DNA from: Chiloscyllium plagiosum
Taxonomy: Eukaryota
Length of the DNA: 64,000 nt
Direction: 5' to 3'
NCBI RefSeq assembly: GCF_004010195.1
Contig: NC_057719.1
Span: 37,926,200 to 37,990,199 of the forward strand
Shown: positions 2,291 through 63,937 of the stretch, in pieces
Layout of the letters: the number at the start of each line of letters is the position of its first letter
Numbering within the stretch: position 1 is the first letter of the stretch
Translations under genes and position numbers: made by a program
The notes under the pieces: generated by a model
What the model was told of the DNA's origin: nothing
What the model saw: the letters and a program-made list of their open reading frames with translations, nothing else
Database searches by the model: none

Positions 2291-3244
2291 GAGACGGCAT
2301 GGTACATTGGTGAGACCAAGCAGAAGCTCCGGCGACAGATGAATGGGCACTGCACAACAATCTACAGACAGGAGTGTTCCCTCCCAGTCGGAGAACACTT
2401 CAGTGGTCCGGGACATTCAACCTCGGACCTTTGGGTGACCATCCTCCAAGTCAGACTTTGGGACAGGCAACAGTGCCAAGTTTGGTACCCATGGGGATGG
2501 CCTCAACCGGGACTTTGGGTTCATGTCACACTACAGGTGATCCCATTGCACTATACACACACAGACACTCCTGCACACACACACACAAACACAGGTACTC
2601 CGACACACATACACACACACACACACTCACGCAGATCGTCTCTCACTCCCACACACACCCTCTCACAGACTTATACCCCTTTGCACTCACACTCACACAC
2701 ATACACACACTCTCACAGACAATCATAACCCCATCACCGCCCCACCCCCAACACCCCCCACATACACACGCATGCACACATACACACACACAGACAAACG
2801 TATAACTTTGTGGGATGATTTTGTACTTGCAGAATTACATTTTACTTTGCTCAAAAACTGCATGAACCGTTTTTTAGATTAGAATCAGTCTGACCATTGT
2901 GGCAGAGACAGCCCCACACAGGGAAGCTAACACCTTCAATACATTATCTGGGCCGACATGACACCAGTTGTAAAAGTTCACTTGCAACTTTTTAAAAAGG
3001 TTTTGCGATTTACATATGAAAGAACTGAAACCAAAATGGTCATTCTAAAAGATTTGAGACTTAACAAACAATCCAGGTCTTTTTCAATATATAGTTTCAG
3101 TTACATCACACTGAAAACTTGCGTTATAAATTCTGTGTCTTACAGTCTTATTCTCACAACTACCTGATGAAGGAGCAGTGCTCCAAAAGCTTGTGCTTCC
3201 AAATAAATCTTTTGGACTATAACCTGGTGTTGTGTGATTTTTAA
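2291..3244 (+). mobile_element. Penelope-like element 3' part (GIY-YIG endonuclease remnant, CA-rich tract, pLTR with hammerhead motif)
   Basis: YIGETKQKLRRQMNGH...LPVGEHFSGPGHS reads as a PLE GIY-YIG domain; CA-rich tract at 2553-2795; CTGATGA-stem-(G>A)AAA motif at 3161-3195. Confidence 0.85.
2553..2795 (+). repeat. Imperfect (CA)n-rich microsatellite inside the PLE 3' region
   Basis: Interrupted acacac runs are directly visible. Confidence 0.9.
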
Positions 3245-3497: not shown

Positions 3498-4678
3498 AGG
3501 GAAATTTGGTAGAGCTGCTCGGGAGGATTTAAACTAATAAGGTGGGGGGTGGTGGACCCAGGGAGATAGTGAGGAAAGAGATAAATCTGAGATGGTACAG
3601 TTCAGAACAGAAGAGAGTCAAACAGTCAGGGCAGGCAGGGACAAGATAGGACTAATAAATTAAACTGCATTTATTTCAATGCAAGGGGCCTAACAGGGAA
3701 GGCAGATGAACTCAAGGCATGGTTAGGAACATGGAACTGGGATATCAAGCAATTACAGAAACATGGCTCAGGGATGGGCAGGACTGGCAGCTTAATGTTC
3801 CAGGATACAAATGCTACAGGAAGAATAGAAAGGGAGGCAAGAGAGGAGGGGGAGTGGTGTTTTTGATAAGGGATAGCATTACAGCTGTACTGAGGGAGGA
3901 CATTCCCAGAAATACATCCAAGGAAGTTATTTGAGTTGAACTGAGAAATAAGAAAGGATGGTCACCTTATTGGGATTGTATTATAGACCCCCTAATAGTC
4001 AGAGTGAAATTGAGAAACAAACTTGTAAGGAGATCACAGCTATCTGTAAGAATAATAGGGATGTGGTAGGGGATTTTAACTTTCCAAACATAGACTGGGC
4101 CTACCATAGTGTTAAGGGTTTAGATGGAGATGAATTATTAAATGTGTACAAGAAAATTTTCTGATTCAGTATGTGAATGTACCTACTAGAGAAGGTGCTT
4201 GAAAATGTGTTGCTGGAAAAGCGCAGCGGGTCAGGCAACATCCAAGGAGCAGGAGAATCGACGTTTCGGGCATGAGCCCTTCTTCAGGAATCTTGCCCAA
4301 AACGTCGATTCTCCTGTTCCCTGGATGCTGCCTGACCTGCTGCGCTTTTCCAGCAACACATTTTCAGCTCTGATCTCCAGCATCTACAGTCCTCACTTTC
4401 TCCTACTAGAGAAGGTGCAAAACTTGACCTATTCTTGGGAAATAAGGCAATGCAGGTGACTGAGGTGGCAGTGGGGGACCACTTTGGGGCCAGTGACCAT
4501 AATTCTATTAGATTTAAAATAGTAATGGAAACGGATAGACCAAATCTAAAAGTTGAAATTCTAAATTGGAGAAAGGCCAATTTTAACGGTATTAGGCAAG
4601 AACTTTCAAAAGCTGACTGGGGGCAGATGTTCGCAGGTAAAGGGACAGCTGGAAAATGGGAAACCTTCAGGAATGAGA
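3498..4678 (+). mobile_element. CR1 LINE fragment: end of ORF1 plus APE endonuclease of ORF2, interrupted by a PLE-derived insertion
   Basis: AITETWL, GGGV, LYYRPPN, VGDFNFPNIDW, DHFGASDHNSIRF motifs; collinear with the copy at 27997-28560. Confidence 0.9.
4199..4403. mobile_element. Short palindromic PLE-derived insertion (antisense arm + sense arm + tail) with TSD
   Basis: Antisense arm 4200-4291, sense arm 4294-4403. CCTACTAGAGAAGGTGC is duplicated at 4182-4198 and 4402-4418. The empty site is visible in the CR1 copy at about 28286-28310. Confidence 0.9.
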
Positions 4679-7567: not shown

Positions 7568-7996
7568 NNNNNNNNNNNNNNNNNNNNNNNNNNNNNNNNN
7601 NNNNNNNNNNNNNNNNNNNNNNNNNNNNNNNNNNNNNNNNNNNNNNNNNNNNNNNNNNNNNNNNNNNNNNNNNNNNNNNNNNNNNNNNNNNNNNNNNNNN
7701 NNNNNNNNNNNNNNNNNNNNNNNNNNNNNNNNNNNNNNNNNNNNNNNNNNNNNNNNNNNNNNNNNNNNNNNNNNNNNNNNNNNNNNNNNNNNNNNNNNNN
7801 NNNNNNNNNNNNNNNNNNNNNNNNNNNNNNNNNNNNNNNNNNNNNNNNNNNNNNNNNNNNNNNNNNNNNNNNNNNNNNNNNNNNNNNNNNNNNNNNNNNN
7901 NNNNNNNNNNNNNNNNNNNNNNNNNNNNNNNNNNNNNNNNNNNNNNNNNNNNNNNNNNNNNNNNNNNNNNNNNNNNNNNNNNNNNNNNNNNNNNNN
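7568..7996. other. Assembly gap (429 N) in the GC-rich promoter region
   Basis: N run flanked by C-runs on the left and G-rich sequence on the right. Confidence 0.99.
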
Positions 7997-8416
7997 GAGG
8001 GGAGGGGTCCAAGCCCAAGCCGGAGGTGGGGCGTTGGCAAGGAGTGTGTCCGCATGTGGACTAGGTTGGAGGCGGGGCGATGGAAGGGGGCGTGTCCGGG
8101 GTGGTGGAGGGATGTTGGGATGTTCAGGCAAGGGGGATGGGAGAGGGGAAGGGGCGAGACGGGAGGAGGCGGGGTCAACGTAAAAGGGGTGGGTCTTTAG
8201 AGGTGAGTCAATGGACGGGGCGGGGCGAGAGAAGGGGCCTGGTCTATGGGCGGGGCCAGAGTAAGGGGCGGTGCTGGGGGCGGGTTCGAGGGCGGGGCGC
8301 GGTTGAAATCGGCCAATGTTTGAAGGCGGCCCTCGGCGCTGCTGCTACAAGAGAGTGTGGGAGGCGCGGCGCCCGGCTTCGGGGACTATGACCCGGGGAG
8401 CGGTGTGTAATTGAAG

Positions 8417-8478
<62 letters not shown>

Positions 8479-8496
8479 CCTCGGCCCGGGACTCCG
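7997..8496 (+). promoter_or_regulatory. CpG-island promoter/5' UTR of ANKRD9(-like) with multiple GC boxes and a CCAAT box
   Basis: Dense CpG, repeated GGGCGG/GGGGCGGGG (e.g. 8217-8225), CCAAT at 8313-8317, no obvious TATA box. TSS not determinable from sequence. Confidence 0.75.
8417..8478 (+). repeat. Perfect hexamer microsatellite (GCAGGA)10+GC in the putative 5' UTR
   Basis: Direct count of 10 units at 8417-8476. Confidence 0.97.
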
Positions 8497-9423
8497 ATGC
8501 CGCCCCCGGCCATGCCCTGGAGTCTGGGCTATTGCAGCCCCGGGGGCGGTCAGCAGGAATCGCGGTGGCGGAAACGCTGCAGGAAATCATCGTTTGCTTT
8601 TTACCAGGCGGTGCGGGACCTGCTGCCTGTCTGGATGCTGGAGGAGATGAGGACCATGGAGGTGTTCCACTGGGAGGACAGTGGCCGCATCAGCAGCTAC
8701 TCGCCGTCCGAGGCTCTGCTCTATGCCCTGGTGCACGACCACCAGGCGTACGGCAAGTACCTGCTGAGCGAGCACCCCCGGGCTGCCCTGGCTATGTCCA
8801 GCACCAGCTTCTGTTGCTGCTCGGTCCTCGGCCAGCACCTGGCCATGGCTGTGCGCTACAACCGGGTCGCCACCCTGTCGCGGATCCTCGACAGCCTGCG
8901 CCGCTTGCCGGAGGGAGAGCGCCGCCAGTACATCGACCGCCGGGGCTGCGAGCATGTGGAGAGCGGCAAGACCCCACTGCACTTGGCGTGCGAGCTGGTC
9001 AGGCCCGAGTGTTTGACCCTGCTGCTCGGCCACGGCTCGTCTCCTTACATCAGGGACTGCCGCGGGGACACGGCTCTGGACACCTTACTGCAGCAGCTGG
9101 GTTCCAGTCCCCTGGACAATCCCAGGATGGCCAGGTGCCTGCATCACCTCCTGCTATTCATGCCCGAGCTCCAGTTTCAGATGAAGACGACGCTGAAGGA
9201 CAATGCCAGTCTCTGGCGGACCGTTCTGGGGACACCGCTCTTCCAATGGCTCTCGGGCTACAGCCCCGCTCCCCTCTTCATAAAGGCCATGCAAACTTTA
9301 ATCAGGACGATAGACCCCGAGAAATTCCCAGAGGGTCTGGACGAACTACCCATATCCCATCTCCTCCGAACTCTGGACTTTAAACTGACTGCAGGCGGCA
9401 CTGTCCGTTCAAACTTCGAGTGA
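8497..9423 (+). CDS. ANKRD9: Ankyrin repeat domain-containing protein 9 (or ANKRD9-like paralog), single coding exon; the likely start is the second ATG at 8512 (MPWS…)
   Basis: Intact 308-aa ORF. CRKSSFAFYQAVRDLLPVW, YSPSEALLYALVHDHQAY, AVRYNR, DRRGC, TPLHLACELVRPECL (ankyrin) and FQWLSG..P.LF..AMQ.L...I.P.KFPE.LDELP match my recollection of human ANKRD9, which starts MPW. ATG 8512 has G at -3 (GCCATG), while 8497 has C. Confidence 0.93.
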   Translation: MPPPAMPWSLGYCSPGGGQQESRWRKRCRKSSFAFYQAVRDLLPVWMLEEMRTMEVFHWEDSGRISSYSPSEALLYALVHDHQAYGKYLLSEHPRAALAMSSTSFCCCSVLGQHLAMAVRYNRVATLSRILDSLRRLPEGERRQYIDRRGCEHVESGKTPLHLACELVRPECLTLLLGHGSSPYIRDCRGDTALDTLLQQLGSSPLDNPRMARCLHHLLLFMPELQFQMKTTLKDNASLWRTVLGTPLFQWLSGYSPAPLFIKAMQTLIRTIDPEKFPEGLDELPISHLLRTLDFKLTAGGTVRSNFE

Positions 9424-9581: not shown

Positions 9582-9657
9582 TAAAAATGTGTTGCTGGAA
9601 AAGCGCAGCAGGTCAGGCAGCATCAAAGGAGCAGGAGAATCGACGTTTCGGGCATAA
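9582..9657 (-). mobile_element. Fragment of the short PLE-derived element (antisense arm only) in the probable ANKRD9 3' UTR
   Basis: Near-identical to 4200-4275 and 13477-13552. Confidence 0.9.
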
Positions 9658-12419: not shown

Positions 12420-14140
12420 CATTACCTCTGGAATTCAGCTCTTTTGTCCATGTTTGAACTAAGGCCGAATTCTGGAGCTGAGTCCCTAGCACAACCCAAA
12501 CAGGGTGTTGGTGAGCAGGTTATTGCTGAGCAAGTGCAGTTGGATAGCATGAATGATGACACCTTCTATCATTATACTGACAATCAAGAGTAGACTGATG
12601 GGGTGTTGATTAGCCTTTTGGATTTGCCTTGCTTTTTGTGTAAGGACATACCTGGGCTATTGTCCACATTGTTGTAACAGTACTGGAAGAGCTTGGCTAG
12701 AGGAGCAGTACAATCTGGAGCACAAGTCTTCAGTTCTATTGCTGGAATGTTGTTATGGCCCATAACCTTTGCAGTATCCAGTGCATCCTACCGTTTCTTT
12801 ATATCACATGGAGTGAAACAAATTTGCTTAAAACTGGTATCTGTAATGCTAGGGACCATTGGAGGAGATGGATCATCCAATTGGCACTTCTGGCTGAAGA
12901 TGGCTGCAAATGCTTCAGCCTTAACTTTTGCATTGATGTTTTGAGCTCCTCCATTATTGAGGAAGGGATATTTGTGGAGCTGCCTCCTCCACTGAGTTGT
13001 ACACCACCATTCACAGCTGGATGTGCCACTGCTGGGTCTGTCCAGGCAGATCATGTTTCTGGGATGTTGTGTGTAAGGTATGATTCAGTGAGTATGACTA
13101 TGTCAGGCTGTTGGTAGCTTCCCCAGTTTGACACCTCAGTTTTAATTATGCCTGGTGCTGCTCCTGCACATTCCATTGAACCAGGGGTGATCCCCTGGCT
13201 TGTATGGGGGAATATGCTGCACCATGAGGTTACAGATTGTGCTGGAGAACAATTCTGCTGCTGTTGATGGCCCACAGTGCCTCATGGATGCAGAGTCTTG
13301 AATTGGTAGGTCTATTTGAAGTCTGTCTCATTTAGCATGGTGATAGTGCCACACAGTACATTCTCAATGTGAAAGCAGGACTTTGTATCCATGAGGACTA
13401 TGCGCTGTCGCTGTTGCCAATACTTTCATGGACAGAAATATTTGCAACCGGCAAATTGCCAGGGATGAATTTGTGCTGAAAATGTGTTGCTGGAAAAGTG
13501 CAGCAGGTCAGGCAGCATCCAAGGAGCAGGAGAATCGACGTTTCGGGCATGAGCCCTTCTTCAGGAATGCGCTTTTCCAGCAACACATTTTCAGCTCTGA
13601 TCTCCAGCATCTGCAGTCCTCACTTTCTCCAGGGATGAATTTGTGTATGATTTTCCCTCTTTGCCTGCCATTGATCCAACCTGTCCTTTAGGACCTGATC
13701 ATCTCAATCAAGAGTGCTGCTGCTGAGCCACTCTTGGTGGTGAACATTTAAATCCCCAACCAGTGTATGTTTTGCACCCTTTCCACCCTCGGTGCTCTTT
13801 CCAAGTGTTGTTCCATGTGGAAGAGTATCAATTCATCAGCTGAGGGAAGATAGTATGTGGTAACAGCAAGAGGTTTCCGCGCCCATGTTTAACCTGAAAC
13901 CATGAGACTGTGTGGGTCCAGAGTCAATATTGAAGACTCTGGGGCCAACTCCCTCCTGACTGTATTGCCATCTCTGCTGGGTCTGTCTTGCCCATGGGAC
14001 AGGATATACCCAGGGATGGGTATCGTGATGTCTGGGACATTGTTTATAAGCTATGATTCCATGAGTATTTTGGCACCAAAGTAGGAAGTACTTTGCAGGG
14101 TCGACATGGTAGTTTCTGCTATTGTCTTTTCTGGTGCCCA
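12420..14140 (-). mobile_element. Second LINE family (CR1/L2 group, 'family B'), endonuclease to RT-proximal fragments
   Basis: QQPDIVILTESYL (endonuclease), KAEAFAAIFSQKCQLDDPSPP, ALVQTWTKELNSRG on the minus strand; homologous to 55848-57130. Confidence 0.8.
13476..13630. mobile_element. Short palindromic PLE-derived insertion with TSD
   Basis: Antisense arm 13476-13568, sense arm + tail 13569-13630; CCAGGGATGAATTTGTG duplicated at 13459-13475 and 13629-13645. Confidence 0.92.
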
Positions 14141-17120: not shown

Positions 17121-17435
17121 AACAAATGGTGCTAAAAATACCTCCTAATTTCTAATATTTATGTAATCCACATTCAGAGACAAGAATAGTATTTTTGTTT
17201 TCTCTCTAATCATCTTGGGAATGCAACCGAACATTCTGTGCATTGTCTTAAAAGCCTCATAATACTGACATAAAACTTTATTGATTGGTTACTGTAGCGT
17301 CAAAGCCCTTCTCTTAAGTCTCAAATGCTTTCCTCAACCCTCACAATCAAAACTGGGTAGTGGCTAAATTTTCCTCTGTGTCTGGTTTATAAAGTAACTT
17401 AGGAAAATGAGCTCCAAGGTATGGTTTACTCAAAC

Positions 17436-17562
17436 CTGATGAAGGGTTCCTGCCCGAAACGCTGTTTTTCCTGCTCCTCGAATGCTGCCTGACCTGCTGT
17501 GCTTTTCCAGCACCACTCTAATCTTGACTCTAACCTCCAACATCTGAGTCCTCACTTTCATC
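17436..17562 (+). mobile_element. Short PLE-derived insertion (sense) starting at the hammerhead core, 11-bp TSD
   Basis: TTTACTCAAAC at 17425-17435 and 17563-17573; element begins CTGATGA. Confidence 0.85.
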
Positions 17563-18146
17563 TTTACTCAAACACTGACAGACACCTAATGGGAGACCAT
17601 CACTGTTTTATACACAGCTAGACCAAGCATCCAATACATACTTGCAGCTAATCAAGGACAAATCAAAATCCCTGTCATAATCACCTTGAAAATGAATTCA
17701 TATCAACAGTACATGTCAAGTCTGCTTAGTGGAACACTCCGCAATAAGATTAGCAGATGGGCATCCATTGAAAACTTATTAGCACTGATAAATGATAACT
17801 GTAGAAAAACAAAATAGAAATATTCTCTACATTATTCTAATGAAGAAGAACATTTTTTGAATGTTGAAGGTGAGGTTGAAATGTTTGTGTTTATGAAAGA
17901 AGGAAATTGTTTCCAGGTATTTTCCAAGGAGAAACAGAGACAGTCATTTTTTTGATTTGATAGACAAGCCAATTGAGAGCCTTCAATGCTTTCAAAGGAA
18001 CATGGAGAAAGTCAAACAGGGTTTTTACTCTTATCATGCTCTGGAATGGGTCAAGTTATTGGAATCATATGACATTAGTCGGGGAAATAGTTATGACAAA
18101 TGCGATGAAGAAAATCGTTGTTCTGCTCAATTGAAACTGTTCACTT

Positions 18147-30409: not shown

Positions 30410-30528
30410 GGAGAAAGTGAGGTCTGCAGATGCTGGAGATCAGAGCTGAAAATGTGTTGCTGGAAAAGCGCAGCAGGTCAGGCAGCATCCAGGGAACAGG
30501 AGAATCGACGTTTCGGGCATAAGCCCTT
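30410..30528 (-). mobile_element. Short PLE-derived insertion including the tail
   Basis: Reverse complement of the sense arm + tail (…CACTTTCTCC). Confidence 0.9.
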
Positions 30529-33098: not shown

Positions 33099-33183
33099 GA
33101 GGAGAAGGTGAGGGCTGCAGATGCTGGAGATCAGAGTCGAGAGTGTGGTGCTGGAAATGCACAACAGGCCAGGCAGCATCCGA
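33099..33183 (-). mobile_element. Short PLE-derived insertion with a degenerate 14-bp TSD
   Basis: AATCGCTGATCCTC (33085-33098) vs AATTGCTGATCTTC (33184-33197). Confidence 0.75.
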
Positions 33184-34930: not shown

Positions 34931-35341
34931 TAGACAAGCAGGAGGCTGGAAGAACACAGCAGGCCAGGCAGCTTCAGGAGGTGGTGACGTTGACATTTTG
35001 GGTGTAACCATTTTCAGGACTGGGGGTGGGTGTAAGTGGAGCTGCAGATAAAGGGGGTGGCGGGGTGGTGAGGTGGGGATAAATGAACATGGGTAGAGGG
35101 CATGATGGGAGAATGAATTCAGTTGGTAACAACTACAGCCATGTTCACTCAGTGAGTCCCTTTCTCACTGCCCCAAAGCCGTGACCTATTCAGGCCTCCA
35201 GCTCTTTGACCACACAATGAAACAAACTCTCTGCTACAACCACGTGACATTCCTCAGCTGCTGTCTTCATAACCATCTCATTCCTCAAGGCCTACAGATA
35301 CATTTTAAACCCTCCAAATTTGGACCCAACTTTGTGTGCAC
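34931..35341. mobile_element. PLE insertion: antisense pLTR arm (34931-~35127) fused to a sense ORF N-terminal fragment
   Basis: NHVTFLSCCLHNHLIPQGL is the PLE N-terminal H..FL..C....LIP.GL motif; degenerate TSD ACAGTGAAGGGCATG (34916-34930) / ACAGTGAATGATAGA (35342-35356). Confidence 0.7.
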
Positions 35342-35636
35342 ACAGTGAATGATAGAGTTGTAAAGAGTAAGGAACAATGGATGAGCAAAGATATTGAGGC
35401 GCTGGTCAGGAATAAAGATGAGTCATATTACATATAAATAACTGGGATCAAATGAATCTCTTGAAAAGTATAAGGGGTGTGGAGGCATTCTTAAGAGAGA
35501 AATCAGGACGGCAAAAAGGGAGTTAAAAGATAGCCTTGGCAGATAGGTTCGCAATAACTCAAAGTGATTCTCCAAGTACATTAAGACCAAAGGAGCAACT
35601 AAGGAGAGAATAAAGATCAATAAAGTCATCTTTTCG

Positions 35637-36178: not shown

Positions 36179-37937
36179 ATATGTGGAATCACAGGAAGTA
36201 GGAAAGATACTAAATGAATATTTTGCACGAGTTTTACTGTGGAAAAATGACATGGAAGCTGTAGAGCTCAACGGAAATAAATATTGATGTCTAAAAACAA
36301 TCCACATTATAGAAGAGGAAATGCTGGAGGTCTTAAAAATCATAAAGGTGACTAAATCTCTGGGACTTGATCAAGTGTATCCCAGGATGTTGTGGGAAGT
36401 TAGGGAAGAAATTGCAGGGCCCCTAGCAGAGGCTATCTGCAGCCATGGGTGAGTTGTCAAATGACTCGAGGGTGGCTAATGCTGTGCCTTTATTTAAGAA
36501 AGGCTGTAAGGAGAAACCTGGGAACAATAGATTGTGGAATCTGACATCAATGGTGGGTAAGTTGTTGGAGGAACCTCTGAGAGACAGGATTTATATGCAT
36601 TTGGAGTGGCAATGACTGATTCAGGATATTCGTGGGAAATAGTGTCTCACAAATTTGATTGAGTTCTTTGAGGATGTAACCAAAAAGGTTGATGAGGTAG
36701 AGGAGTAGATGTCTTCTACATGGGCTTTAGTAAAGTTTTTGTCAAGGTTTTGTATGATAGACTAGTTAGCAAAGTTAGATCACATGGATTCAAGGAGAGC
36801 TTGCCAATTGGATACAAAATTTGCTTCAAAGTAGGAGGCAGAGGGTGGTGTGGAGGATTGTTTGTCAGATTGGAGGCCTGTGACCAGTGGCGCTCCACTC
36901 GGATTGGTACTGGATCCACTTTTGGTGTCATTTATATAAACAATTTGGATAACAATTTAGGAGGCATGGTTAGTAAGTTTGCGGATGACATCAAAATTGG
37001 TAGTATAATCAACAGTGAAGATGGTTATTTAAAATTACAAAGGGATCTTGATTGATTGGGCCAATGGGCTGAGGAGTGGCAGATGGAGTTTAATTTAGAT
37101 AAATGTGAGGTATTACATTTTGATAAAACAAACAAGGGCAGAACTTGTGCAGTTAATGGTAGGGCCCTGGGTAATACTATCAAACAGGGGGAGGCTGGGT
37201 GTTCGGTATTTAAGTCTTTGTAAGTTATATCACAGGTAGACAGGGTGATTAAGTCAGCATTTAGCGTGTTTGCCTTCATTGCTCAGACCATTGAGCATAA
37301 GAGCTGGGATGTCATGTTGACATAATGCAGAACGTTGGTGAGGCATCTTCTGGAGTATGTGAGTGTTCTGGTCACCCTGCCATAGGAAGAATATTATTAA
37401 ATTGGAGAGGTTTCAGAAAAGATTTACCATGATATTGCCAGGACTGGAGGATTAGAGGTATAAGGAAAGGTTGGATAGGCTGGGACTTTTTTTTTGGAGT
37501 ATAAGAGATTGAGGGGTGACTTTATAAAGGTTTATAAAATCATGACAGGCATAGATAAGGTGACCAAGGGTGGGTGAGTTCAAAACTAAGGGGCATATTT
37601 TTAAGGAGAGAGGAGAATGATTTAAAAGGGACCTATCGCAAACCTATCTGCCAAGGCTATCTTTTAACTCCCTTTTTGCCGTCCTGATTTCTCTCTTAAG
37701 AATGCCTCCACACCCCTTATACTTTTCAAGAGATTCATTTGATCCCAGTTATTTATATGTAATATGACTCATCTTTATTCCTGACCAGCGCCTCAATATC
37801 TTTGCTCATCCATTGTTCCTTACTCTTTACAGCTCTATCCTTCACTGTGTGCACACAAAGTTGGGTCCAAATTTGCAGGCTTTAAAATGTATCTGTAGGC
37901 CTTGAGGAATGAGATGGTTGTGAAGGCAGCAGCTGAG

Positions 37938-38024
37938 TTGAAACTTTATTGCTGGAACAGCACAGCAGGTCAGGCAGCATCCAGGGAACAGGAGATTCGA
38001 CGTTTCGGGCACAGGCCCTTCTTC
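37938..38024 (-). mobile_element. Short PLE-derived arm inserted into the inverted duplication, 15-bp TSD
   Basis: AAGGCAGCAGCTGAG (37923-37937) / AAGACAGCAGCTGAG (38025-38039); absent from the source copy at 35241-35556. Confidence 0.88.
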
Positions 38025-39054
38025 AAGACAGCAGCTGAGGAATGTCACGTGATTTAAAAGGGCATAAGCTTTTCCCAAGGGTGGGTGAGTTCAAAACTAA
38101 GGGGCATATTTTTAAGGAGAGAGGAGAATGATTTAAAAGGGACCTGAGGGGCAGCTTTTTCACACAGAGGGTGATTCGTATGTGGAATGAACTGCCAGTG
38201 AATCAGAGGCCATTCGGCCCATTAAGTCTACAGCGACCATCCAAACAGCATCATACCCACACTCAACATCCTACTCCAGCCCTGTATCCCTATATTTCCC
38301 ATGGATAATCCACCAGGCCTGGATTACTATGGGAGGTGGTGGACACAGGTATAATTACATTTAAAATATATTTGGAAAGGAACATGAATAGGAAAAGTTT
38401 AGAGGGATATGGGCCAAATGCAGGCTAATGGGACTGGTTTAGTGCAGAAAACTTAGTCAGTATGGACTAGCCGGACTGAAGAGTCTGTTTCTGTGCTGTG
38501 TGACTTTATGACTCTATAAGAGAGTTTGGTTTGAAATCTGCAGTTTGTTATAACAGAGGAAGTTGAAGTTCTCAGATTTGTGGAAACATTCATGTGGAAA
38601 GATTTGAAAAGAACTCATTGAATTCTCTCCACACTTCATAATCAAGTAACTGTCTGAAGTTAGTTAGGTAGAACCCTAAAGAGTTGAGGTACGAGGTGTA
38701 AATGCTGTCAAACAGGAAATGTCACAAAATGGCTGGAGACTTTGTTTTGTCATGTATATTAGATGGAGCTAACGGTATTCAATTTTTACATAGCTTGGTT
38801 TATTATTTTTCATTTCTTCTTTTGTGTAATAAATTTCAGTTGTCAGCTCAAAGAATCCTGCACCCTTGTGTGAATATGTCCCAGTGATTAACTACCATAT
38901 TAACCAACTAAACAAAGGATAATTAAAAATAGATCTTTCAAGCCAGATTACATCTTGGGATATGACTTGTCCAATGGTACCATCAGTTGCAATCATGGCA
39001 GTATGTTAGGAGTAAACGTGAGAGGTTATTTCATGTGCTCTTGTGATTGATGAC

Positions 39055-42075: not shown

Positions 42076-43812
42076 CAATCTACTGCAAAAAAAAGACCAC
42101 TGGCTTTGAGGTAAGTACTTAAATAGCACTCAAATAGCACCATCACAATAGATGGTGAGGAACATGATCATTACAATTATGGGAAAAAGGAGAGAGATCA
42201 TGAACAGATACAGCGCAAGAGGTTGGCAAAAAGGAACTGTATTATTGAGCTCAGAAACATGGATTGGTATTCTGCGCCAATATGATTGCCTGCCAACCAA
42301 CCATTCAATCTCATTATGACCAAGCCCAGCATTATGATTGTGTACACTTCATTTCAGTAATGTTCTCAAATGCATTATCCACCTGAAACACTTAAAATCA
42401 ATCACTAAATGTCACTGGAAATCGTGGTCAAACTGGACAACTGTCTGGACAGACAGCATCTTAAATATTCTGCTGTGTTCTGGTCACTGTAAAGCTAGGA
42501 ACCTGAATCAGAGTTGCAGAGGAAAGACTGGAGAAACTAGTTTTTCAATTTGGAAAGGAGATATCTGAGATATGTTCTTAAACAATTGAACACGAATATT
42601 AAGGGTGTGTGTCAGGGTTGGAACATTTAATCACTCTTTCCCACAAGAGGAATTTGAGGCTGATTTTGGGGTAAGCCAAAGTTCACATGTTTAGACACCA
42701 TAAACTCCAGCCTGAGACTGAATGGGAGAGGTTTGAAGCGATAGGTGAATTGTGAACAATGACAACGGATGGCAAGCTATATGTCACCTTGGGCAAGACT
42801 TTCTGCTCCTGGAGAAGGTGACTGTAGATGTGTAAAGGGAAGTTAATCAGCCACGGTGCTGGAATACCACCTCTATCTTCTTCCCACCTCCTCCAGAATT
42901 AAGTGCAAGTGGGAATGTCTATGGTGATCTTCCCGGCATGTTGTCCTTTAAGGCCATTAATTTTCCAATTAACGACCATTTTAGAGCCTCAGTATCACCA
43001 TTGGGATTAGCCCAGCTGCAAGTGGTCTTGCAGGCTTGAGGCCATGCAGCATGTACAGCAACTAGAACCATGTGGCCATCAAGGGCGGGTGGGAGGGCTT
43101 ACCTCCACCAAGGGCGCTCAGTAGCTGATTGAGGAGCTCAAAGTTTGGAAGGATGGAACCCCTTTGCTCTTGTTGCTGAGCCCCCTGCATCCCAACAGTG
43201 CCAACCCCTGCAATATCATTTACCTTTGTCCTGGATCCTTCACTATCTTGGGACTCCTGCAGTCATGTCTTCCTCTGAGATAGGACGGAGCACAAGAGTT
43301 ATTAGGCTCTGTGTGGCCTGCAGCTCCACCTCCAGGGGTTTTGAGATCAGGAAAGGCCTGCTCAATCCCTCTGATTAGCATGTGGAAGCCAGCCTTCCCC
43401 GGAAAGGGACCACTCTCTGGCTTGCTTACACTTCATTGAGATCCTACCTCATATCTCAAGCAGATTAGATAAACATGCACAGACCTATAATAGTGTGGAT
43501 AATACTATTCATGTGAATCAATTATGAAGTATACAGGGTGTAGTTTGTTTTGCTGATAGGTATCTTGGTGAATCATGGATTGCACATTCCTCTTTGACAT
43601 CACTCAACTCCACCTCAGCTCAACCCATCTGCTGTTAAACTGTGATTGCCCCTTTAGAGTTTTGACCAGTCTTCCCTGGCAACTGTGCCAACTTGTGGTC
43701 ACTGTCATTGGGAATGAGCCAAACAGGCAACAAAGAAAGATGCACACAAACAACATCTCCTTTAAGATGCCCATAGCCATCTTAATCTTAAATGGATTGT
43801 TCAGTGTCACAA

Positions 43813-44442
43813 AACCTGCGCCCACACCTCCTCCCTCACCTCCATCCAAGGCTCCAAAGGAGTCTTCCACATCCATCAAAGTTTAACCTGCACTTCCACA
43901 CATCATTTATTGTATCCGTAGCTCCCAATGCGGTCTCCTCTATATTGGGGAGTCTGGAAGCCTTCTCGCACAGCACTATAGAGAACATCTCCGAGACACC
44001 CGCACCAATCAACCCCACTGCCCCGTGGCTGAACATTTCAACTCCTCCTCCCTCTCTGCCAAGGACATGCAGGTCCTGGGCTTCCTCCATTGCCACTCTC
44101 TAACCACCCGACACCTTATCTTCCATCTCGGGACCCTTCAACCCCATGGCTTCAATGTGGACTTCACCAGTTCCCCATTTCCCCTCCCCCCACCTTACCC
44201 CAGTTCCAACCTTACAGTTCAGCACCTATTGCACTTTCAGCTATCTGCCATCCAGCCCCACCTCCCCCCCCTCCCCCTCCCATTTATCTCTCCACCCCAA
44301 AGCTCCCAGCCTCATTCCTGATGAAGGGCTCCGGCCCGAAACGTCGATTTTCCTGCTCCTCAGATGCTGCCTGACCTACTGTGCTTTTCCAGCAACACAC
44401 TCTCAACTCTGATCTCCAGCATCTGCAGACCTCCTTGTCTCC
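43813..44442 (+). mobile_element. 5'-truncated Penelope-like element (GIY-YIG, pLTR, hammerhead, tail) with a 15-bp TSD
   Basis: IYCIRSSQCGLLYIGESG…REHL; TGTTCAGTGTCACAA (43798-43812) / TGTTTAGTGTAACAA (44443-44457); homologous to 63230-63937. Confidence 0.9.
44314..44349 (+). ncRNA. Minimal (type I-like) hammerhead ribozyme motif with intact core
   Basis: ATTC-CTGATGA-A-GGGC(TCCG)GCCC-GAA-ACGT-C^GATT. Equivalent intact cores (CTGAAGA) on the minus strand at 4256-4291 and 13533-13568. Confidence 0.75.
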
Positions 44443-44609: not shown

Positions 44610-45100
44610 AAAAACTGAAAGAACTGCAGATGCTGTAAATCAGAAACACAAACAAAAGTTGCTGGAAACGCTCAGCAAGTCTGGCAGCATCTGTGGAGAC
44701 AAATCAAATTTAATGTTTCGGATCTGGTGACCCTTCCTCAGAACTGATGGTAGCTAGGAAAATGTTGGTTTATATGCAGAAGACAGGGTGGGGGGAGGAG
44801 GTAAGGAATAAATGAGAGGTGAGGATAGAGCCCAAAGAGAGAGAAAAACAGACAGAGGAGTCAATAACAATTTGATTGGGAGGGCGAATAGCTGTTTATG
44901 GACACTGTTAGTGGCTAACAATAGGTAGCGTGTAACAGCCGACCATGGGATAACAAGATGTGTGGGGTGGGGGCTAGGACATGGAGGAGTTCAGGGCCTA
45001 AAATTATTGAACTTGACATTGAGTCCAGTAGGCTGCAGGGTCCCCAAGTGGAAAATGCTGAGCTTCGCTAGAGAACTGCAGCAAGCCTGAGACAGAGATC
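44610..45100 (-). mobile_element. Penelope-like element 3' end, third family, with a hammerhead motif at 44708-44745
   Basis: Reverse complement has FHLGTLQPTGLNVKFNNF (PLE C-terminus) and AGTT-CTGAGGA-A-GGGTC(ACCA)GATCC-GAA-ACAT-T. Confidence 0.8.
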
Positions 45101-47355: not shown

Positions 47356-47500
47356 TTTGTAGTTATTTTTAAAATCAACCTGTTTGGACATGCTATAGTG
47401 TATCTCTGGGGCAGGTGGATCATCTGGCTCAGAGGTAGCGACATTACCTCTGCATCACAGGACCTAATTTAACATTAACTTGGGTGGTTAAATTATTAGT

Positions 47501-47724
47501 TGAGAGTGTGTTGCTGAAAAAGCACAACAGGTCAGGCAGCACCTGAGAAGCAGGAAAATCGATGTTTCGGGCCGGAGCTCTTCATTAGGAACCTATTGAA
47601 GAGGATTTTTCAATGGATTGTAACATCAATTCTCCTGCTCCTTGGATGCTGCCTGACCTGCTGTGCTTTTACAGCAACACACTCTCAACTCTGATCTCCA
47701 GCATCTGCAGACCTCACTGTCTCC
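47501..47724. mobile_element. Short palindromic PLE-derived insertion with a 16-bp TSD
   Basis: TGGTTAAATTATTAGT (47485-47500) / TAGTTAAATTATTAGT (47725-47740); antisense arm ends at AGGAA (about 47591), then ~30 nt of filler, then sense arm + tail. Confidence 0.88.
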
Positions 47725-49952
47725 TAGTTAAATTATTAGTCCACTGACACGACCACTCGATCACCAGGAACTAGCACATTAACCTCTTTTTATAATAAAT
47801 ACTTCACAACAACAATCTAAATTTGTGCAGTAATTTTAATTGTCAATTAATGCGCAAATGCAGCAATTTTAGGAAATTCACAGGAAGGCTGACAACGAGC
47901 TGCACTTTTCATGAAGTGCAAATATCAGCAGAAATTTGGAAATCCTCCAGCAACCATTAGTGATTCACAATTCACGTGGTGTTGCTTCCTCATAAATTGA
48001 TCAAAATCACAGGGAGCACCATTCAGCTTGCAGTTACGTCAGTGTTAAAACCGGATTCATTACCTTTTTTCTTCTCTTTTGCCCCTCCCATGATTGCTTG
48101 CAACAATTAAATTTGTTGAGCACAAGGTTGTATAAAAGAAAAGAAATAAATCCTGAAAGTAGTTGTTTGGTATTACAGAACTTGAGTATTGCTGAACACA
48201 GAACATATTACACGTACAGCACAGGAACAGATCCTTTGGCCCACCATATCTGCATTGACCATGATGTTATGTTAAGCTAATCACATCTGCCTACACTTGG
48301 TCTGTATCTCTCTATTCCGTGCCTGTCCACAGGTCTGTCTAAACGCCTCTTAAAAGTTACTATCGTATCTACTTCCACCATCTCTCCTGGCAGTGAGTTC
48401 CAGGCACCTACCGCCCTCTGTGTAAAAAACTTGCTTTAACTAGCTCTCTTAAACTGTTCTTTTCTCCTTGGGGAAAAGGAAATACAAAACTTTTTGTCTT
48501 GCACTCATCATGACAATTCACAAGAAATATCCAAATAAAGGATAACAATTTACTGCATACGCTCCTCCCATACAATTAAAAAAATGTTGAACAAAAACAG
48601 AAATTGCTGGAAAAACTCAGCAGGTGCTGCCTGAGCTGCTGAACTTTTCAAGCAATTTCTGCTTTTGTTTCTGATCTACAGCATCCACAGCTCTTTCGAT
48701 TTTTAAAAATATATTTATTTCCTTTTACTTCAGCTTTTCCCAAGAATTGTCCTGATGATTGCAAGATTAAAGGTTTCAGCAAAATATTTATTTTTTCTGC
48801 AATGCTCAAGATTTATAAAGATTAAAACAAATTGTATCAAAGAAAACATGGCCAGAAGGAAAAGTCAATGGAATAGAAAGGGATAGAAAGCAGAGTCATG
48901 TAAAAGACATTTTCAGGCTAAGAAAATGCAGGTTATGGTGCATATCAAGCAATTTTTCCGGGGATCAATTGTCTTTCCAATAATAAAACAATTCAAATAA
49001 CAGAAGTTGATGCATTCTGCAGAAAAGAATTACACCAAATGGGAACATCCAGAATAGTGTATCAAAATGATTCAAGGCCACAGATATATACATTTTTGAG
49101 AGGTAGAAGGGTGTAGCTGAATAAGTTTCTATATTAAAAATTATTTAAAAGTAGTCTTAAATTTTACATTTAGGAGCACTATAAAAGCAAGAAAATGATG
49201 ATGAATTTGTATATTGTTCAATCCAAAGTTGGAATGCTGTGTGCAATTCTCAAAATCCTGTTAGAAAGAGATTTATAGCACTCTTCAAAATTAGCCAAAC
49301 TTGGCTAATTATGGATCCAGATGTACAACATCTGATTAGTAAATAAAAATTAGTCTCAATAAGGATTTGCATAAAGTAGGCAGGTGTATGTTTGGTTTTC
49401 AGGCAACGAAAATTTAACAGAAAGACAAAACGTGTCCTGTCTTTCGTGTGCAAAACGTGTGCTAGTGTTATTTGGTCACTGAGTGCTTCACTTATCCAAT
49501 TCACAAATATAGATAGCCATATGTTGAATATATGTGCCTGTGAAATACACTACATTTTACTAATGCATTGAAGCTAAATGCTGCATTTGGAATTATTAAC
49601 ATCTGCTAATAGCCTTACCTAACAAAAATCTATTGACCTCAGCCTGGAGAGTTTGAACTGATCCAGCATTATATATCTGAGCAGGGAAATAGATGGTGGC
49701 ATAATCTTTCATGGTACCAATAGCAAAACCAAACAGAATAAAAGAGATTCAAGGACAGTCAGTCAGCTATGTCTGGAAAGCGAGTCTGCCCTTTCCTGCA
49801 TGAATTCATTCATCTCAATTCCAGAGGGGGTCAGAATTTGGCTGGCCAGGAAATAATCAGTGATCTTATAAACAGGACTATTTCAAAATTATTGTTTTTG
49901 TTCTCATGGAAGTTTCTGTAGTAATTTGGGTTGATAAGAAATTTGATTACAA

Positions 49953-55090: not shown

Positions 55091-55220
55091 ATTCCCAATG
55101 AAGGGCTTATGCCCAAACTGTCGATTCTCCTGCTCCTCGGATGCTGCCTGACCTGCTGTGCTTTTCCAGCACCACACTCTTGACTCTAATCTCCAGCATC
55201 TGCAGTCCTCACTTTCTCTC
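55091..55220 (+). mobile_element. Short PLE-derived insertion nested in an older palindromic PLE-derived element (55040-55378)
   Basis: Starts ATTCC at the hammerhead 5' edge; TGGAGAAA repeated at 55080-55087 and 55222-55229. Confidence 0.8.
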
Positions 55221-55847
55221 TTGGAGAAACTCAGCAAGTCTGACAGCATCAGTGGAGAGAAAACAGATTTAACATTTTGAGTCCAATGATCTTTCTTCTA
55301 AACGTTAACTCTGCTTTCTCCCCACAGATGCTGCCAGATCTGCTGAATTTCTCCAGTCAGTTCTGTTTTTGTTCAGGTAACGATGCAGTTCTCTCCCTCT
55401 CTGCTCAGATGTTCTCTCAGATTTCTCTGTATCATGTACAGTTTCAGTACTCATAGTGCTTCCTTCATTCATCCCCTTTCCCTTTCCTCCAATCACTGCA
55501 CCATATTTCAGACTGCCATTTTTCCACAAACAAACATAAAACTCCAGTATTGCAACCTTCATTTCTCCACACTGTAAAACAAGCTAATCCACCATGAAAG
55601 GCACCATTATTAAATACCTCATACATCTGTCATTGACACTCACCTGTCCCTCTGGCAGGGGAAGGACGCTCATCACTCAGGAGGCTGCCATTCAGCCTGC
55701 ACTCTCCCTTTGAAGATAAGGAGGCATAGCAGGGTGATCAATACCCAGATTTTATGCAATTGTCCCGTAAATCAGCTAATTGTCTCACATGTTCTATATT
55801 ATTACTTTTCAGGGCCACCTTTGTCCAGTATTGTTCATTATTGCTCA

Positions 55848-57130
55848 TTCGCAGCAATCTTCAGTCAGAAGTACTGATTGGATGATCCATCTCGCCCACC
55901 TCCAGTGGTCCCCAATATTACTGACACCAATCTTCAGTCAATTTGGTTCACTCCACATGATATCAAGGAACAGTTGGAGACTCTGGATACTGAAAAGGCT
56001 ACGGGCCCTGACAACATTCCAGCAAAGCACGGAAGACTTATGCTCCAGAACTTGTCGCTCCCCTCGCCAAGCTCTTCCAATACAGTCATGACACTGGCAT
56101 CTACCTGACAATGTGGAAAATTGTCCAGGTATGTCCTGTACATAAAAAGCAGGACAAATCCAACCATCAGTCTACCCTCAATCATCAGAAATGTGGTGAA
56201 AGGTGTCATCAGCAGTGCTATCAAGCTGCACCTGCTCAGCAGTAACCTGCAGAGTAACACCCAGGCTTCTTCAGGCTTATGCCCGAAACGTCGATTCTCC
56301 TGTTCCTTGGATGCTGCCTGACCTGCTGCGCTTTTCCAGCAACACATTTTCAGCTCTGATCTCCAGCATCTGCAGTCCTCACTTTCTCCTGTGACCAATA
56401 AGAGACAATCTAATCACCGCCCCTTGACATTCAATGGGGTTACCATCAATGAATCCTCTACTATCAATATTCTGGGGTTATCATTGACCGGAAACTCAAG
56501 TGGACTCAGCACAGAAGTACAGTGACTACAAGAGCAGGTCAGAGGCTAGGAATACAGTGACAAGTAACTCTGCTCCTCACTCCCCAAAGCCTGTTCACAA
56601 TCTACAATGCACAATCAGGAGTGATGGAATACTCCCCACTTGCTCAGATGGGTGCAGCTCCAACAACACTCAAGCGGCTTGACACCATCCAGGACAAAGT
56701 AGTGTGCTTGATTGGCACCACATCCACAAGCATCCACTCTCTCCATCACCGATGATCAGTAGCAGCAGTGTGCACAATCTACAAGATGGACAGCAGAAAT
56801 TCACCAAAGATCCTCAGACAGCACCTTCCAAACCCACCACCACTTCCATTTAGAAGGATAAAGGCAGCAGATACATGGGAACGTCAATCCTTCAAATTCC
56901 TCTCCAAGCCATTCACCATCATGATTTAGAAACATGTCACTGTTCTTTCACTATTGCTGGGCAAATGTCCTGGAATGCCAAGCCTTAAGGGCATTGTTGG
57001 TCAACTCACAGCAGGTGAACTGCAGCGGTTCAAGATGGCAGCTCCCTAGCATCTTACCAAGGGCCACAAATATGGGCAATAAATGCTGACCAGTCAGTGA
57101 CACCCACATGCCACAAAAGATAAGAAAAAA
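55848..57130 (+). mobile_element. Family-B LINE, RT-proximal region to 3' end, with a PLE-derived insert at 56266-56389
   Basis: DDPSRPPP, KATGPDNIPA, WKIVQVCPVHKKQDKSN; 3' end GGGCAATAAATGCTG…CCCACAT + A-rich tail. Confidence 0.85.
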
Positions 57131-61439: not shown

Positions 61440-63937
61440 CTTTACTGAGGACTGCCGAGTTTTCACCTTCCCTCAGACCTGCCCCTCACTGAGGACGAAC
61501 GATCAGCCATCAGCAAAGGACTTACATTCATCCCCCTCTATTCATGCATCAACGAATTCAGTACACATTATGACGTTGAACACTTCTTCCATCACCTCCA
61601 CCTCCGAGCTTACCTTTTCCAACCAAGACCCCCGCCCACCTTTAGAGGACCCCTTCGCTTGCTCCAACACACCCCATCCACCTGGATATCCTGTGCCGGT
61701 CTGTTACCTGCCCTCAACCTCTTTATTTCCAACTGCCGCAGAGACATTAAGCGCCTCAACCTGTCCACCCCTTCTCTTTCACTCGAAACTCTCACCCTCA
61801 TAACGCATAGCCCTCCACTCCCTCTGCTCCAAACACAACCTCACCATCAAACCAGCAGACAAGGTGGGTGCAATGGTAGTTTGGCGCACTGACCTCTACA
61901 CTGCTGAAACCAGGCACCACTTGAAGGCACCTCCTCCAACCGCCCCCTTGACCACCACCTCACCTCCCATCACCAAACCATCATCTTCCTCATCACCGCA
62001 GGGGATCTTCCACCCACAGCTTCCAAACTCATAGTTCAGGAACCCCCACACCATTTGGTTCTACCTCCTATCTAAGATTCACAAGCCTGACTACCCTAGC
62101 CGACCTATCGTCTCAGCCTGCTCCTGCCCCACCGAATTCATCTCCACATACCACAATACTGTCCTATCCCCCGGGTCCAGGAACTCCCCACATACGTTCA
62201 GGACAGCACCCACGCCCTCCACCACCACCTCTAAGAGTTCCATTTCCCTGTCTCCCAACGCCTCATCTTCACCATGGACATCCAGTCCCCTATATACCTC
62301 CATCCACCATGATCAGGGCCTCAAAGCCCTCACCAGAACCTTTCCACTGACACTTTCATTTGTTTGGCTGAACTGGTCCTCACACTCAATAATTTCTCCT
62401 TTGAATCCTTCCACTTCCTCCAGACGAAAGGGGTAGCCATGGGCACCCGCATGGGCCCCAGCTATACCTATCTCTTTGTCGGCTACATAGAACAGTCTAT
62501 CTTCCGCAGTTTCACCTGCAGCACTCCCCACCTTTTCCCCCGCTACACTGATGACTGCATTGGCGCCACCTCATGCTCCCACGAGGAGGTTGAACGTTCA
62601 TCAACTTCACCAACACATTCCACCCCGACCTTAAATTCACCTGGACCATCTCTGACACATCCCTCCCTTTTCTGGACCTCTCCATCTCCAGCAACGGTGA
62701 CCAACTCAACACTGACATTTTCTACAAACCTACCGACTCCCACAGCTGCTGGATTACACCTCCTCCCAGCCTGTGAAAATGCTATCCCTTATTCTCAATT
62801 CCTACAGCTCCACCGCATCTACCCCTAGGAGTACCAGTTCCACCACAGAACACACCAGATGGCCTCCTCCTTTAAAGACCGCAATTTCCCCTGCCACGTG
62901 GTTGAAGATGCCCTCCAGTGCATCTCATCCACACCTCCCGCACCTCCGCCCTCAAAACCACCCCTCCAAACGCAACAAGGACAGAAGCCCCCCCAGTCCT
63001 CACCTACCACCCCACCAACATCCAATTACATTGCATCATCTTCCGCCATTTCCGCCACCTACAAACAGACCCCATCACCAGGGATATATTTCCCTCTCCA
63101 TCCCTATCCACTTTCCATAAAGACCATTCCCTCCGTGAGTACCTTGTCAAGTCCACGTCAGCCAACAACCCACCCTCCCCTCCCGACATCTTCCCCTGCC
63201 ACCTCAGGAATCACAAAACCTGCGTCCACACCTCCCTCTCACCTTGGTCCAAGGCCCCAAAGCAGCCTTCCACATCCATCAAAGTTTCACCTACACTTCC
63301 ACACACGTCATTTACTGTATCTGTTGCTCCCCACGTTGTCTCCTCTACATTGATGAGACAGGTTGCCCACTCTCAGAGCACTTCAGAGAACATCTCCAGC
63401 ACACCCGCACAAACCAACCCCACCGCCCTGTGGCCAACACTTCAATTCCCCCTCCCACTCTGCTGAGGACATACAGGTCCTGGGCCTCCTCCATCGCCAC
63501 TCCCTTACCACCTGACCCCTGGAGGATGAAAGCCTCATCTTCTGCTTTGGGATCCTCCAACCCCATGGCATCAATGTGGATTTCAACAGTTTCATTTCCC
63601 CATCCCCCACCTTATTCCAGTTCCAACCTTCCACGTCAGTACTGCTCTCCTGAACTATCCCACCTGTCCATCTTCCTTCCCAACTATCTGTTCCACCCTC
63701 CCTTCTGACTTTACCCCTGCCTCCATCCACCTATTGCACTCTCAGCTACCTTCCCCCCAGCCCCACCCACTGCCATTTATCTCTCCACCCCCAAGACTCC
63801 TGAACTCATTCTTGATTAAGGGCTTTTGCCCGAAACGTCGATTTTTCCTGTTCCTCGGATGCTACCTAACCTGCTGTGCTTTTCCAGCACCACACTCGAC
63901 TCTAAGCTCCAGCATCTGCCGTCCTCACTTTCGCCTA
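61440..63937 (+). mobile_element. Large Penelope-like element: RT + GIY-YIG + pLTR with degenerate hammerhead (63808-63843) and tail; frameshifted
   Basis: LPLTEDERSAISKGLTFIP, KPADKG, KIHKPD..RPIVSAC, FTMDIQS, GVAMGTRMGPSY, RYTDD, VIYCICC..CLLYIDETG..LSEHFREH. Confidence 0.95.

Follow-up and report, generated by a model that had tools for sequence, protein, structure and literature searches.

Does an intact hammerhead core in a short, dispersed piece of repetitive DNA signify a working ribozyme, or does it record how the piece was copied? The question is raised by a 64-kb stretch of the Chiloscyllium plagiosum genome, hereafter the window, in which a minimal hammerhead motif lies within the 3' pseudo-LTR of a truncated Penelope-like element (PLE). 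We assign this motif and its relatives to the minimal hammerheads in pseudo-LTRs of Neptune-type PLEs, a class that is already known (Cervera & De la Peña 2014). Where PLE RNA starts, how mirror-image insertions arise, how the pseudo-LTR is rebuilt and what the hammerhead is used for are still debated (PMC2377424, PMC8557442, PMC11167929). With ~100,000 intact and several hundred thousand decayed copies at hand, the ends of the copies yield base-level predictions on these points, namely that the RNA starts at helix I, that priming is twofold and uses two sites in the tail, that the template stays uncut, and that the enzyme jumps from the end of one template to the end of another.

The hammerhead motifs of the window

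Positions within the motif are counted from C3 = 0, which places the first base of helix I at -4 and the first base past the predicted cut at +28. The focal motif is composed as follows.

44314-44349, plus strand: minimal hammerhead motif of family 1d, core intact, predicted cut between 44345 and 44346
44314-44317: helix I, 5' strand; 44318: C3; 44325: extra A
44326-44337: helix II, GGGC/GCCC; 44338-44340: GAA; 44341-44344: ACGT; 44345: C17

A sequence-only reading of the window had listed motifs of four families and counted three intact cores in 64 kb. The sequences that it gave are present at all of its coordinates, as checked against the window sequence, and a strict descriptor (core boxes, helix II of at least 4 bp, palindrome, at least three of four helix I pairs) returns exactly three matches, at 44318 on the plus strand and at 13564 and 4287 on the minus strand. 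The search with a minimal-hammerhead descriptor that this reading had proposed yields 32 matches in 638 kb and 57 in 1.217 Mb; none was found in each of 30 dinucleotide shuffles of the 638 kb, and occurrence of the motif is thus not a matter of chance.

The core C3UGANG8A9...G12AAA15.1...U16.1 H17 (or its U3-A8 variant) is kept in the three window copies, whereas the complete core is absent from the family-2 and family-4 window copies and from five degenerate family-1 window copies. An unpaired extra A between positions 9 and 10.1 is found in 32/32 strict matches, and this base is A in 99 of the 101 family-1 copies scored; the G10.1-C11.1 pair with an extra base, as expected of minimal PLE hammerheads, is present. 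Features of canonical type I hammerheads were not detected: an Rfam scan of the window gave no hammerhead family match even at E<=10, and helix I does not extend beyond 4 bp among the strict matches. The miRNA-like Rfam matches in the window score below the gathering threshold and were rejected, as they stem from inverted repeat pairs.

The stems had been described as remaining complementary, which holds for helix II and only in part for helix I. Helix I ATTC/GATT, found in subfamilies 1a, 1c and 1d and in all three intact window copies, forms three pairs and a U-U mismatch; within family 1, four pairs are formed only by subfamily 1b (GAAT). Compared with 4-5 bp in minimal PLE hammerheads, helix I measures 4 bp in 1b, 3 and 5 and 3 bp in family 2, and the palindrome that replaces helix III is ACGT in families 1, 3 and 5 and AGCT in family 2. 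Covariation of the stems shows only in intact family members elsewhere in the genome. In the window, the palindrome of the family-3 copy is broken (ACAT) and its helix I contains a G-A mismatch, G12 is missing from the family-2 copy, and both G8 and G12 are missing from the family-4 copy; because of this damage, covariation is not readable from window copies. A comparison of the families by hand shows compensating changes at 10.3-11.3 and 10.4-11.4 of helix II, in the palindrome and in helix I, with the core fixed. Within family 1, subfamilies differ at N7, loop II, position 1.3 and the tail, and the core is spared. We infer that the ribozyme fold is selected only in source elements.

The copies identified in the window are given below; family-1 pieces marked "added" lie beyond those named in the sequence-only reading, as do family-3 pieces.

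43807-44441, plus: 5'-truncated Penelope-like copy with the focal motif in its 3' pseudo-LTR, long tail
43887-44198: decayed GIY-YIG remnant in the focal copy (E=0.018, below the cut-off)
4200-4291, minus: family-1a stub with intact motif at 4256-4291; its start coincides with that of helix I (-4) and is preceded by G, and it forms the short-tail half of a head-to-head pair
4294-4403, plus: its long-tail inverted partner arm, starting inside helix II, no core (added)
4182-4198 and 4402-4418: 17-bp target-site duplication around the 4200-4403 pair
13477-13569, minus: family-1a stub with intact motif at 13533-13568; short-tail arm
13568-13632, plus: tail-only long-tail partner arm (added); 17-bp duplication at 13459-13475 and 13629-13645 (by eye)
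47498-47591, minus: family-1 stub with degenerate core (G5>A, helix II mismatch), motif at 47556-47591; short-tail arm
47622-47729, plus: long-tail partner arm without core (added); 14-bp duplication at 47487 and 47727
17429-17563, plus: family-1 stub, core broken by U16.1>C, long tail, 7-bp duplication
37936-38028, minus: family-1b stub, start at -2, core broken by C3>U, short tail, 11-bp duplication
55091-55227, plus: family-1 stub, degenerate core, long tail
61449-63932, plus: long decayed family-1 element with RT, thumb, Zn-linker and GIY-YIG remnants in several frames
63808-63843, plus: degenerate motif closing the 61449-63932 element
9584-9657, minus: family-1 stub starting in loop II, no core (added)
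30410-30528, minus: family-1 stub starting at +6, core incomplete (added)
56274-56392, plus: family-1 stub starting at +9, core incomplete (added)
33102-33181, minus: family-1 tail only (added)
2282-3240, plus: truncated family-2 element with GIY-YIG remnant at 2282-2500, 3' UTR, and motif at 3161-3195 with G12>A
44708-44745, minus: family-3 motif that keeps its core letters, with damage to palindrome and helix I; lies at the 3' end of a copy that extends to 45141 or beyond
55222-55373: family-3 head-to-head pair without cores, source of a sub-threshold mir-3202 Rfam match
34988-35021, minus: family-4 motif, G8 and G12 lost; linked to PLEs by tail similarity only

The copies at 4256, 13533 and 47556 are thus arms of head-to-head pairs that lie between 14-17-bp target-site duplications, which the sequence-only reading had not noted. 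If transcribed, the pairs at 4200-4403, 47498-47729, 48590-48705 and 55222-55373 would form long dsRNA hairpins, which are possible candidate substrates for RNA editing or small-RNA pathways; such pairs account for the sub-threshold miRNA-family matches mentioned above. In the tail of the focal copy, 44361-44370 is predicted to pair with 44418-44427 in an outer stem of 9-10 bp (GATGCTG/CAGCATC). This stem is common to families 1, 3, 4 and 5, and its 5' strand is the best conserved stretch outside the motif. Located between or around the two presumed reverse transcription start sites, it may serve as a protein-binding scaffold.

Apart from Penelope-like fragments, the window is rich in CR1-like LINE remnants. 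A 343-amino acid open frame with one ankyrin repeat (8392-9423, plus strand; Pfam Ank, E=1e-4) is apparently a single coding exon of a host gene and resembles ANKRD9. An assembly gap of 464 N (7570-8030) adjoins the G-rich DNA upstream of this frame. A 304-nt inverted repeat (35253-35556 and 37634-37937; 97% complementary, 2 kb apart) is unrelated to the hammerhead families.

The host element, its families and their numbers

That motifs of this kind belong to PLE pseudo-LTRs was confirmed for families 1-3, which are tied to PLE protein remnants, located upstream of the motif in families 2 and 3; the connection of family 4 is by tail similarity only. No blastx match was obtained upstream of the few long copies of families 4 and 5 in our sample. 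A CX4CxxC linker precedes the GIY-YIG motif in 21 of the 22 family-1 frames listed, and linkers of this type are common to Neptune and Nematis elements (PMC8557442); our assignment as Neptune-type is based on this linker and GIY-YIG. The RT fragments match RVT_1 weakly, below the cut-off, and their homologues are single proteins of 700-1000 amino acids with PF00078 and, in part, PF01541.

The full element consists, in this order, of a partial 5' repeat with motif, tail, ATG, ORF, 3' UTR, motif and tail. The ATG lies ~165 nt past C3 in the 5' repeat, and the second motif follows the endonuclease in the 3' repeat. The layout motif-tail-ATG-ORF was observed at four loci (L129, L132, L244 and L247), and at L247 and L244 the 3' motif follows ~3.6-3.7 kb downstream, with assembly gaps in between. 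No full-length ORF free of gaps was found in this genome, as there are N gaps inside all 20 long candidates. The partial tandem pseudo-LTRs, inverted 5' copy, tail and target-site duplications of EN+ PLEs are all present. At L235, L237 and L243, again across gaps, the 3' motif of long elements is immediately preceded by an ATG with an N-terminal piece of the ORF; this reflects either a nested tandem or misassembly. In family 1a (L132, L251-L280), an AG preceded by a pyrimidine run adjoins the long-tail 3' end and looks like a 3' splice site; in family 1c, either CG or AG is found at the same place, and the resemblance may thus be a coincidence.

The expectation of a very large number of motifs in the genome proved correct. 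Exact patterns of five families match 97,401 times in the 3.56-Gb assembly, with 0 matches of the reversed-pattern control each time; there are 80,723 matches for family 1, 15,205 for family 2, 312 for family 3 (with a four-base loop; only 2 with a five-base loop) and 1,148 for family 5, and the family-4-like pattern has 13 heterogeneous matches that may not be family 4. Anchoring on the tail, we found 274 copies in 1.217 Mb, that is, the window and 120 stretches of 10 kb sampled without regard to the motif. As a rough estimate, based on an assembly size that includes gaps, this scales to several hundred thousand copies genome-wide, up to ~0.8 million. The fifth family, which is missing from the window and was seen at L051, L081, L161 and L191, is very uniform in sequence and has a U3-A8 core: among 100 listed of its 1,148 matches, 94 are U3-A8, 6 are C3-A8 and 0 have G8. 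Among 100 listed of the 312 family-3 matches, 90 are C3-G8.

Copy starts cluster at helix I

For a survey of 5' ends, copies were found by a tail anchor located 3' of the cut and extended leftward against natural long copies. Among 171 family-1 copies in 1.217 Mb, 30 were censored by gaps, edges or reference length. Of the 139 copies at risk, 84 end at +9..-9, with the mode at -3/-4 and a rate of 0.043 per nt. Elsewhere, the rates per nt are 0.006 (+42..+31), 0.004 (+25..+10), 0.011 (-10..-30) and 0.0045 (-31..-100), and the peak at the motif is highly significant (Fisher p=1.5e-31). At the predicted cut site (+30..+26), we counted a single end in 151 copies, corresponding to 0.001 per nt and an upper 95% bound of 3.6%. 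The same peak at the motif was observed in family 2 (17/35), in families 3-5 (23/37) and in solo copies alone (50/98). Starts spread over ~20 nt, and family 2 peaks a few bases further upstream. About one-third of the family-1 copies reaching the motif continue beyond this boundary, and for them an additional step or a different template is required.

The left flanks of 52 copies are unrelated to one another, except for inverted tail pieces and one local duplication. Together with duplications that abut the start, this flank test rules out unrecognized subfamilies with different upstream DNA. A spliced short exon before helix I, as in D. virilis, was likewise rejected, given that there is no AG before -4 and no shared sequence in the 52 flanks. 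An apparent peak of four ends at the cut site disappeared once families were separated, three of these ends belonging to family-3 copies that had been aligned to family-1 references. In independent data from sequencing runs X21, X1 and X16, loose ends likewise fall on -4. This base lies in an initiator-like YYANWYY context in families 1, 3 and 4, with no match in family 2. Among collected loci, 1/139 starts at +28; this set is enriched in intact motifs, and the figure is therefore not usable as a rate. A single candidate copy of cleaved RNA was noted at L259, where the upstream repeat starts exactly at the predicted cut (+28).

The base in front of the start is informative as well. Family-1a DNA carries C at -5. 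Copies that start at -4 with a purine in front (R-ATTCC, family 1a) number 5,078, and among 100 of these listed the purine is G in 77 and A in 23 (p=2e-12 against base composition). In a control of copies starting at -2 (2,156 matches), 23 G and 77 A were counted among the 100 listed, A being inflated by partner arms. In five of the 41 junctions that we read in 40 stretches (L284, L298, L301, L305 and L309), neither the partner arm nor the element accounts for the G, which is clearly foreign. In solo copies with a duplication (L283, L287/L288, L292 and L294), the G is the last base of the target duplication, and in inverted pairs it could stem from the partner arm in about half. A G taken from a duplication or partner arm points to microhomology and is only indirectly evidence for a cap. 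The simplest common cause would be an additional C with which the cDNA ends and which is either retained or serves for annealing. An untemplated G is interpreted as a mark of cap copying in LINE-1 and SVA (PMC4859970); end-addition at an uncapped RNA end is a possible alternative source of the extra base.

Two 3' ends, inverted pairs and mini-tandems

The 3' ends of the copies form two fixed peaks near +90 and +126, ~35 nt apart. We found 27 head-to-head pairs, 26 of which could be scored, and 26/26 combine one long with one short arm (chance probability 1.5e-8). An exact flanking duplication is present in 14 of the 26; three duplication-flanked pairs lie in the window, two of them among those scored. 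By analogy with the anole element, long plus short arms would be the expected trace of two RT start sites with both strands extended (PMC11167929). Such twin priming offers an alternative to self-priming on an antisense template (PMC3846280).

Exact junctions of tail to ATG were matched 207 times, and 30 of these loci were examined. In 19 of the 30, another unit begins no more than 400 nt further on, in nearly all cases behind a short ORF piece; the periods of these mini-tandems, where they could be measured, are 189-453 nt. Of the 19 new units, 13 begin at -10..+3 and five at exactly -4, and three junctions consist of an A-run, a G and the unit start (L269, L276 and L279). The upstream repeats of junction loci, mostly mini-tandems and not full-length elements, stop at +9..-9 in 12/16. 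Two exact motifs on one strand occur in none of the 30 junction loci, nor in tandem in the window. Since each mini-tandem has a different junction and none has two exact motifs, they look like single events rather than a propagating family. Their junctions suggest that the enzyme, on reaching an RNA 5' end, can jump to a broken RNA and continue from its oligo(A)-tailed 3' end. L261 (~1370-1750, minus strand) carries two consecutive copies of one ORF-to-motif junction, a pattern expected of a rolling or re-copied mini-unit.

A model for the origin of the copies

We propose, on the basis of the copy ends, that most copies are probably inert DNA copies of the uncut and probably capped first 95-130 nt of the element RNA, starting at helix I and primed at two internal sites. 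RNA synthesis would begin four bases ahead of C3, at the A that opens helix I, in its initiator-like context. The element protein would then nick both DNA strands and prime reverse transcription at two internal sites, and two-site priming has been shown in vitro for the anole Poseidon element, which is not Neptune-type (PMC11167929). Each cDNA would run off the RNA 5' end, often gaining one extra base opposite the cap, and the cDNA ends would be joined by microhomology. In source elements, the 5' and 3' motif copies of one transcript could pair as a protein-assisted dimer. If true, a start at helix I would explain the short helix I without loop 1 in these hammerheads.

The A-run+G junctions of the mini-tandems form the basis of a further, tentative hypothesis that we regard as possible and rather doubtful, according to which PLEs regenerate the pseudo-LTR by an LTR-like strong-stop and strand transfer. 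Target-primed reverse transcription would start at the tail of the 5' repeat, run to the cap at the first base of the hammerhead and jump to the 3' repeat. The shared 'R' would consist of 32 nt, beginning with helix I and ending at the cut, and the dimer would hold the RNA ends and cut to define the 3' end. Stubs would then represent failed transfers, and A-run+G mini-tandems mis-transfers able to seed retrozymes.

Alternative explanations

It is unlikely, in our assessment, that the pile-up marks an RT stop or a resolution point at a folded or protein-bound motif on a longer RNA instead of an RNA 5' end. Such a stop would agree with the spread of ends from +13 to -10, within helix II in many inverted pairs, and with the self-complementarity of the motif, which supplies microhomologies; moreover, reads mapped to the element show no place where many molecules begin or end. 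However, a stall is expected on the 3' side of the hairpin, and the mode at -3/-4 lies past it, and neither the G excess at -5 nor the A-run+G junctions would be explained. A variant that invokes an ATT-cutting endonuclease fits neither families 2-5, which have no ATT there, nor the ATT at +29, which is empty of ends. The model of Cervera & De la Peña, in which dimer cleavage and ligation generate a circular monomer as the main template and short copies are ordinary truncations, appears very unlikely for the bulk of the copies. It accords with the conservation of catalytic geometry at the source (U3-A8 family), and the low, even truncation rates of the copies that pass the boundary are those a circle would allow; a circular template could serve for this minority. 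Yet a circle has no end at -4, where 84/139 copies stop, and the upstream repeats of the junction loci (mostly mini-tandems) stop at +9..-9 in 12/16.

The sequence-only reading had inferred a very large load of potentially self-cleaving motifs. Taken to mean that many dispersed copies are active and cut host transcripts as monomers or trans-dimers, it is in our judgement the least probable of the readings considered here. Motif numbers speak for it, with 57 strict motifs in the 1.217-Mb sample and 97,401 exact matches in the genome, and the two intact minus-strand window copies share one sequence at a distance of 9.3 kb. Both strands of the motif are also covered by poly(A) single-cell reads from a related organism; in this weak test, there was no pile of starts or ends. 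Against it, cores decay neutrally after insertion, like the flanking DNA and without protection. In 101 family-1 copies that were sufficiently free of indels to be scored, out of 115 that span C3, non-CpG core positions are 3% substituted, like the tail, and core CpGs 12-22%. G12 was lost through CpG decay in 17/101, the core is kept in 67/101, and core, helix II and palindrome together in 44/101. No window copy has an intact partner on the same strand closer than 9 kb. Folding predictions place the core of the focal monomer in paired regions and, by secondary-structure energies only, separate the active dimer (-10.9 kcal/mol) from the best dimer (-27.1 kcal/mol) by ~16 kcal/mol; at 4200-4403, a predicted hairpin of -150 kcal/mol would lock the intact copy with its inverted partner. 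In published work, no cleavage was seen with single minimal motifs and only weak cleavage with dimers (PMC4209133), the anole PLE motif cleaved only with the element protein and had no RNA-seq ends at the cut (PMC11167929), and among nine frog PLE-derived dimers one was active and eight remained uncleaved (bioRxiv 10.64898/2026.07.22.740005); PLE hammerheads cleave as dimers according to Lünse et al. (RNA Biol), as summarised in PMC6765202. Neutral decay after insertion, the lack of a nearby same-strand partner in the window and the predicted misfolding leave a large load of active ribozymes unsupported.

Comparison with known systems

Both the ribozyme class and the host elements are known. 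What our analysis adds is a set of genomic signatures, which probably reflect reverse transcription from two internal sites on an RNA that is left uncut and begins at helix I. The motifs resemble the minimal hammerheads of metazoan PLEs (PMC4209133) in their core boxes, the extra base between 9 and 10.1, G10.1-C11.1 and the palindromic 15.2-16.2, and also, in some of the families, in a short helix I without a defined loop, and further in the prevalence of solo truncated copies and the occurrence of opposite-strand pairs. A U3-A8 variant family, as found here, was reported for Schistosoma in the same study. By contrast, helix II has 4-5 bp here and 7-8 bp in Schistosoma, the U-U mismatch in helix I of the largest subfamilies is unlike the motifs described there, and our counts are at least 10 times those of coelacanth (~4,000) and Xenopus (~9,000) (PMC4209133). 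Copy start positions were surveyed here, and no such analysis was found in the accessible text of that paper, the supplements of which possibly hold entries for cartilaginous fish; the 2026 preprint sampled one chondrichthyan.

Similarities to Poseidon PAc of the green anole (Frangieh et al. 2024, PMC11167929) comprise two RT start sites that define the tail, the nicking and extension of both strands, uncut RNA as the main template, a protein-assisted hammerhead and the absence of RNA-seq ends at the cut. The ORF of PAc starts at stem II, whereas the ATG of the Neptune-type element studied here lies ~165 nt past C3. For the pairing of long with short arms and for the 5' boundary, both genomic signatures here, we found no description in the available part of the PAc study. 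Partial tandems, an inverted 5' copy, a 30-40-bp tail at one end, target-site duplications, a CX2-5CxxC linker before GIY-YIG and a promoter inside the pseudo-LTR are shared with EN+ PLEs of the Neptune clade (Craig et al. 2021, PMC8557442; Arkhipova et al. 2013, PMC3846280; Schostak et al. 2008, PMC2377424). In D. virilis, the start site lies upstream and an intron ends at helix I, unlike the helix I start proposed here. In the portions of the literature that our searches covered, we found no capped-start or strong-stop account of PLEs, and Lünse et al. may already list these families.

Non-LTR retrozymes are non-coding hammerhead units of 190-450 nt derived from PLEs (Cervera & De la Peña 2020, PMC7229834; Li, Clavereau & Pollet 2026, bioRxiv 10.64898/2026.07.22.740005) and are matched by the mini-tandems in 19 of our 30 junction loci. 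Retrozymes are tandem, whereas the copies in the window are solo or inverted. Copy numbers in C. plagiosum are similar to those of axolotl retrozymes, which reach up to 120,000 (PMC7229834).
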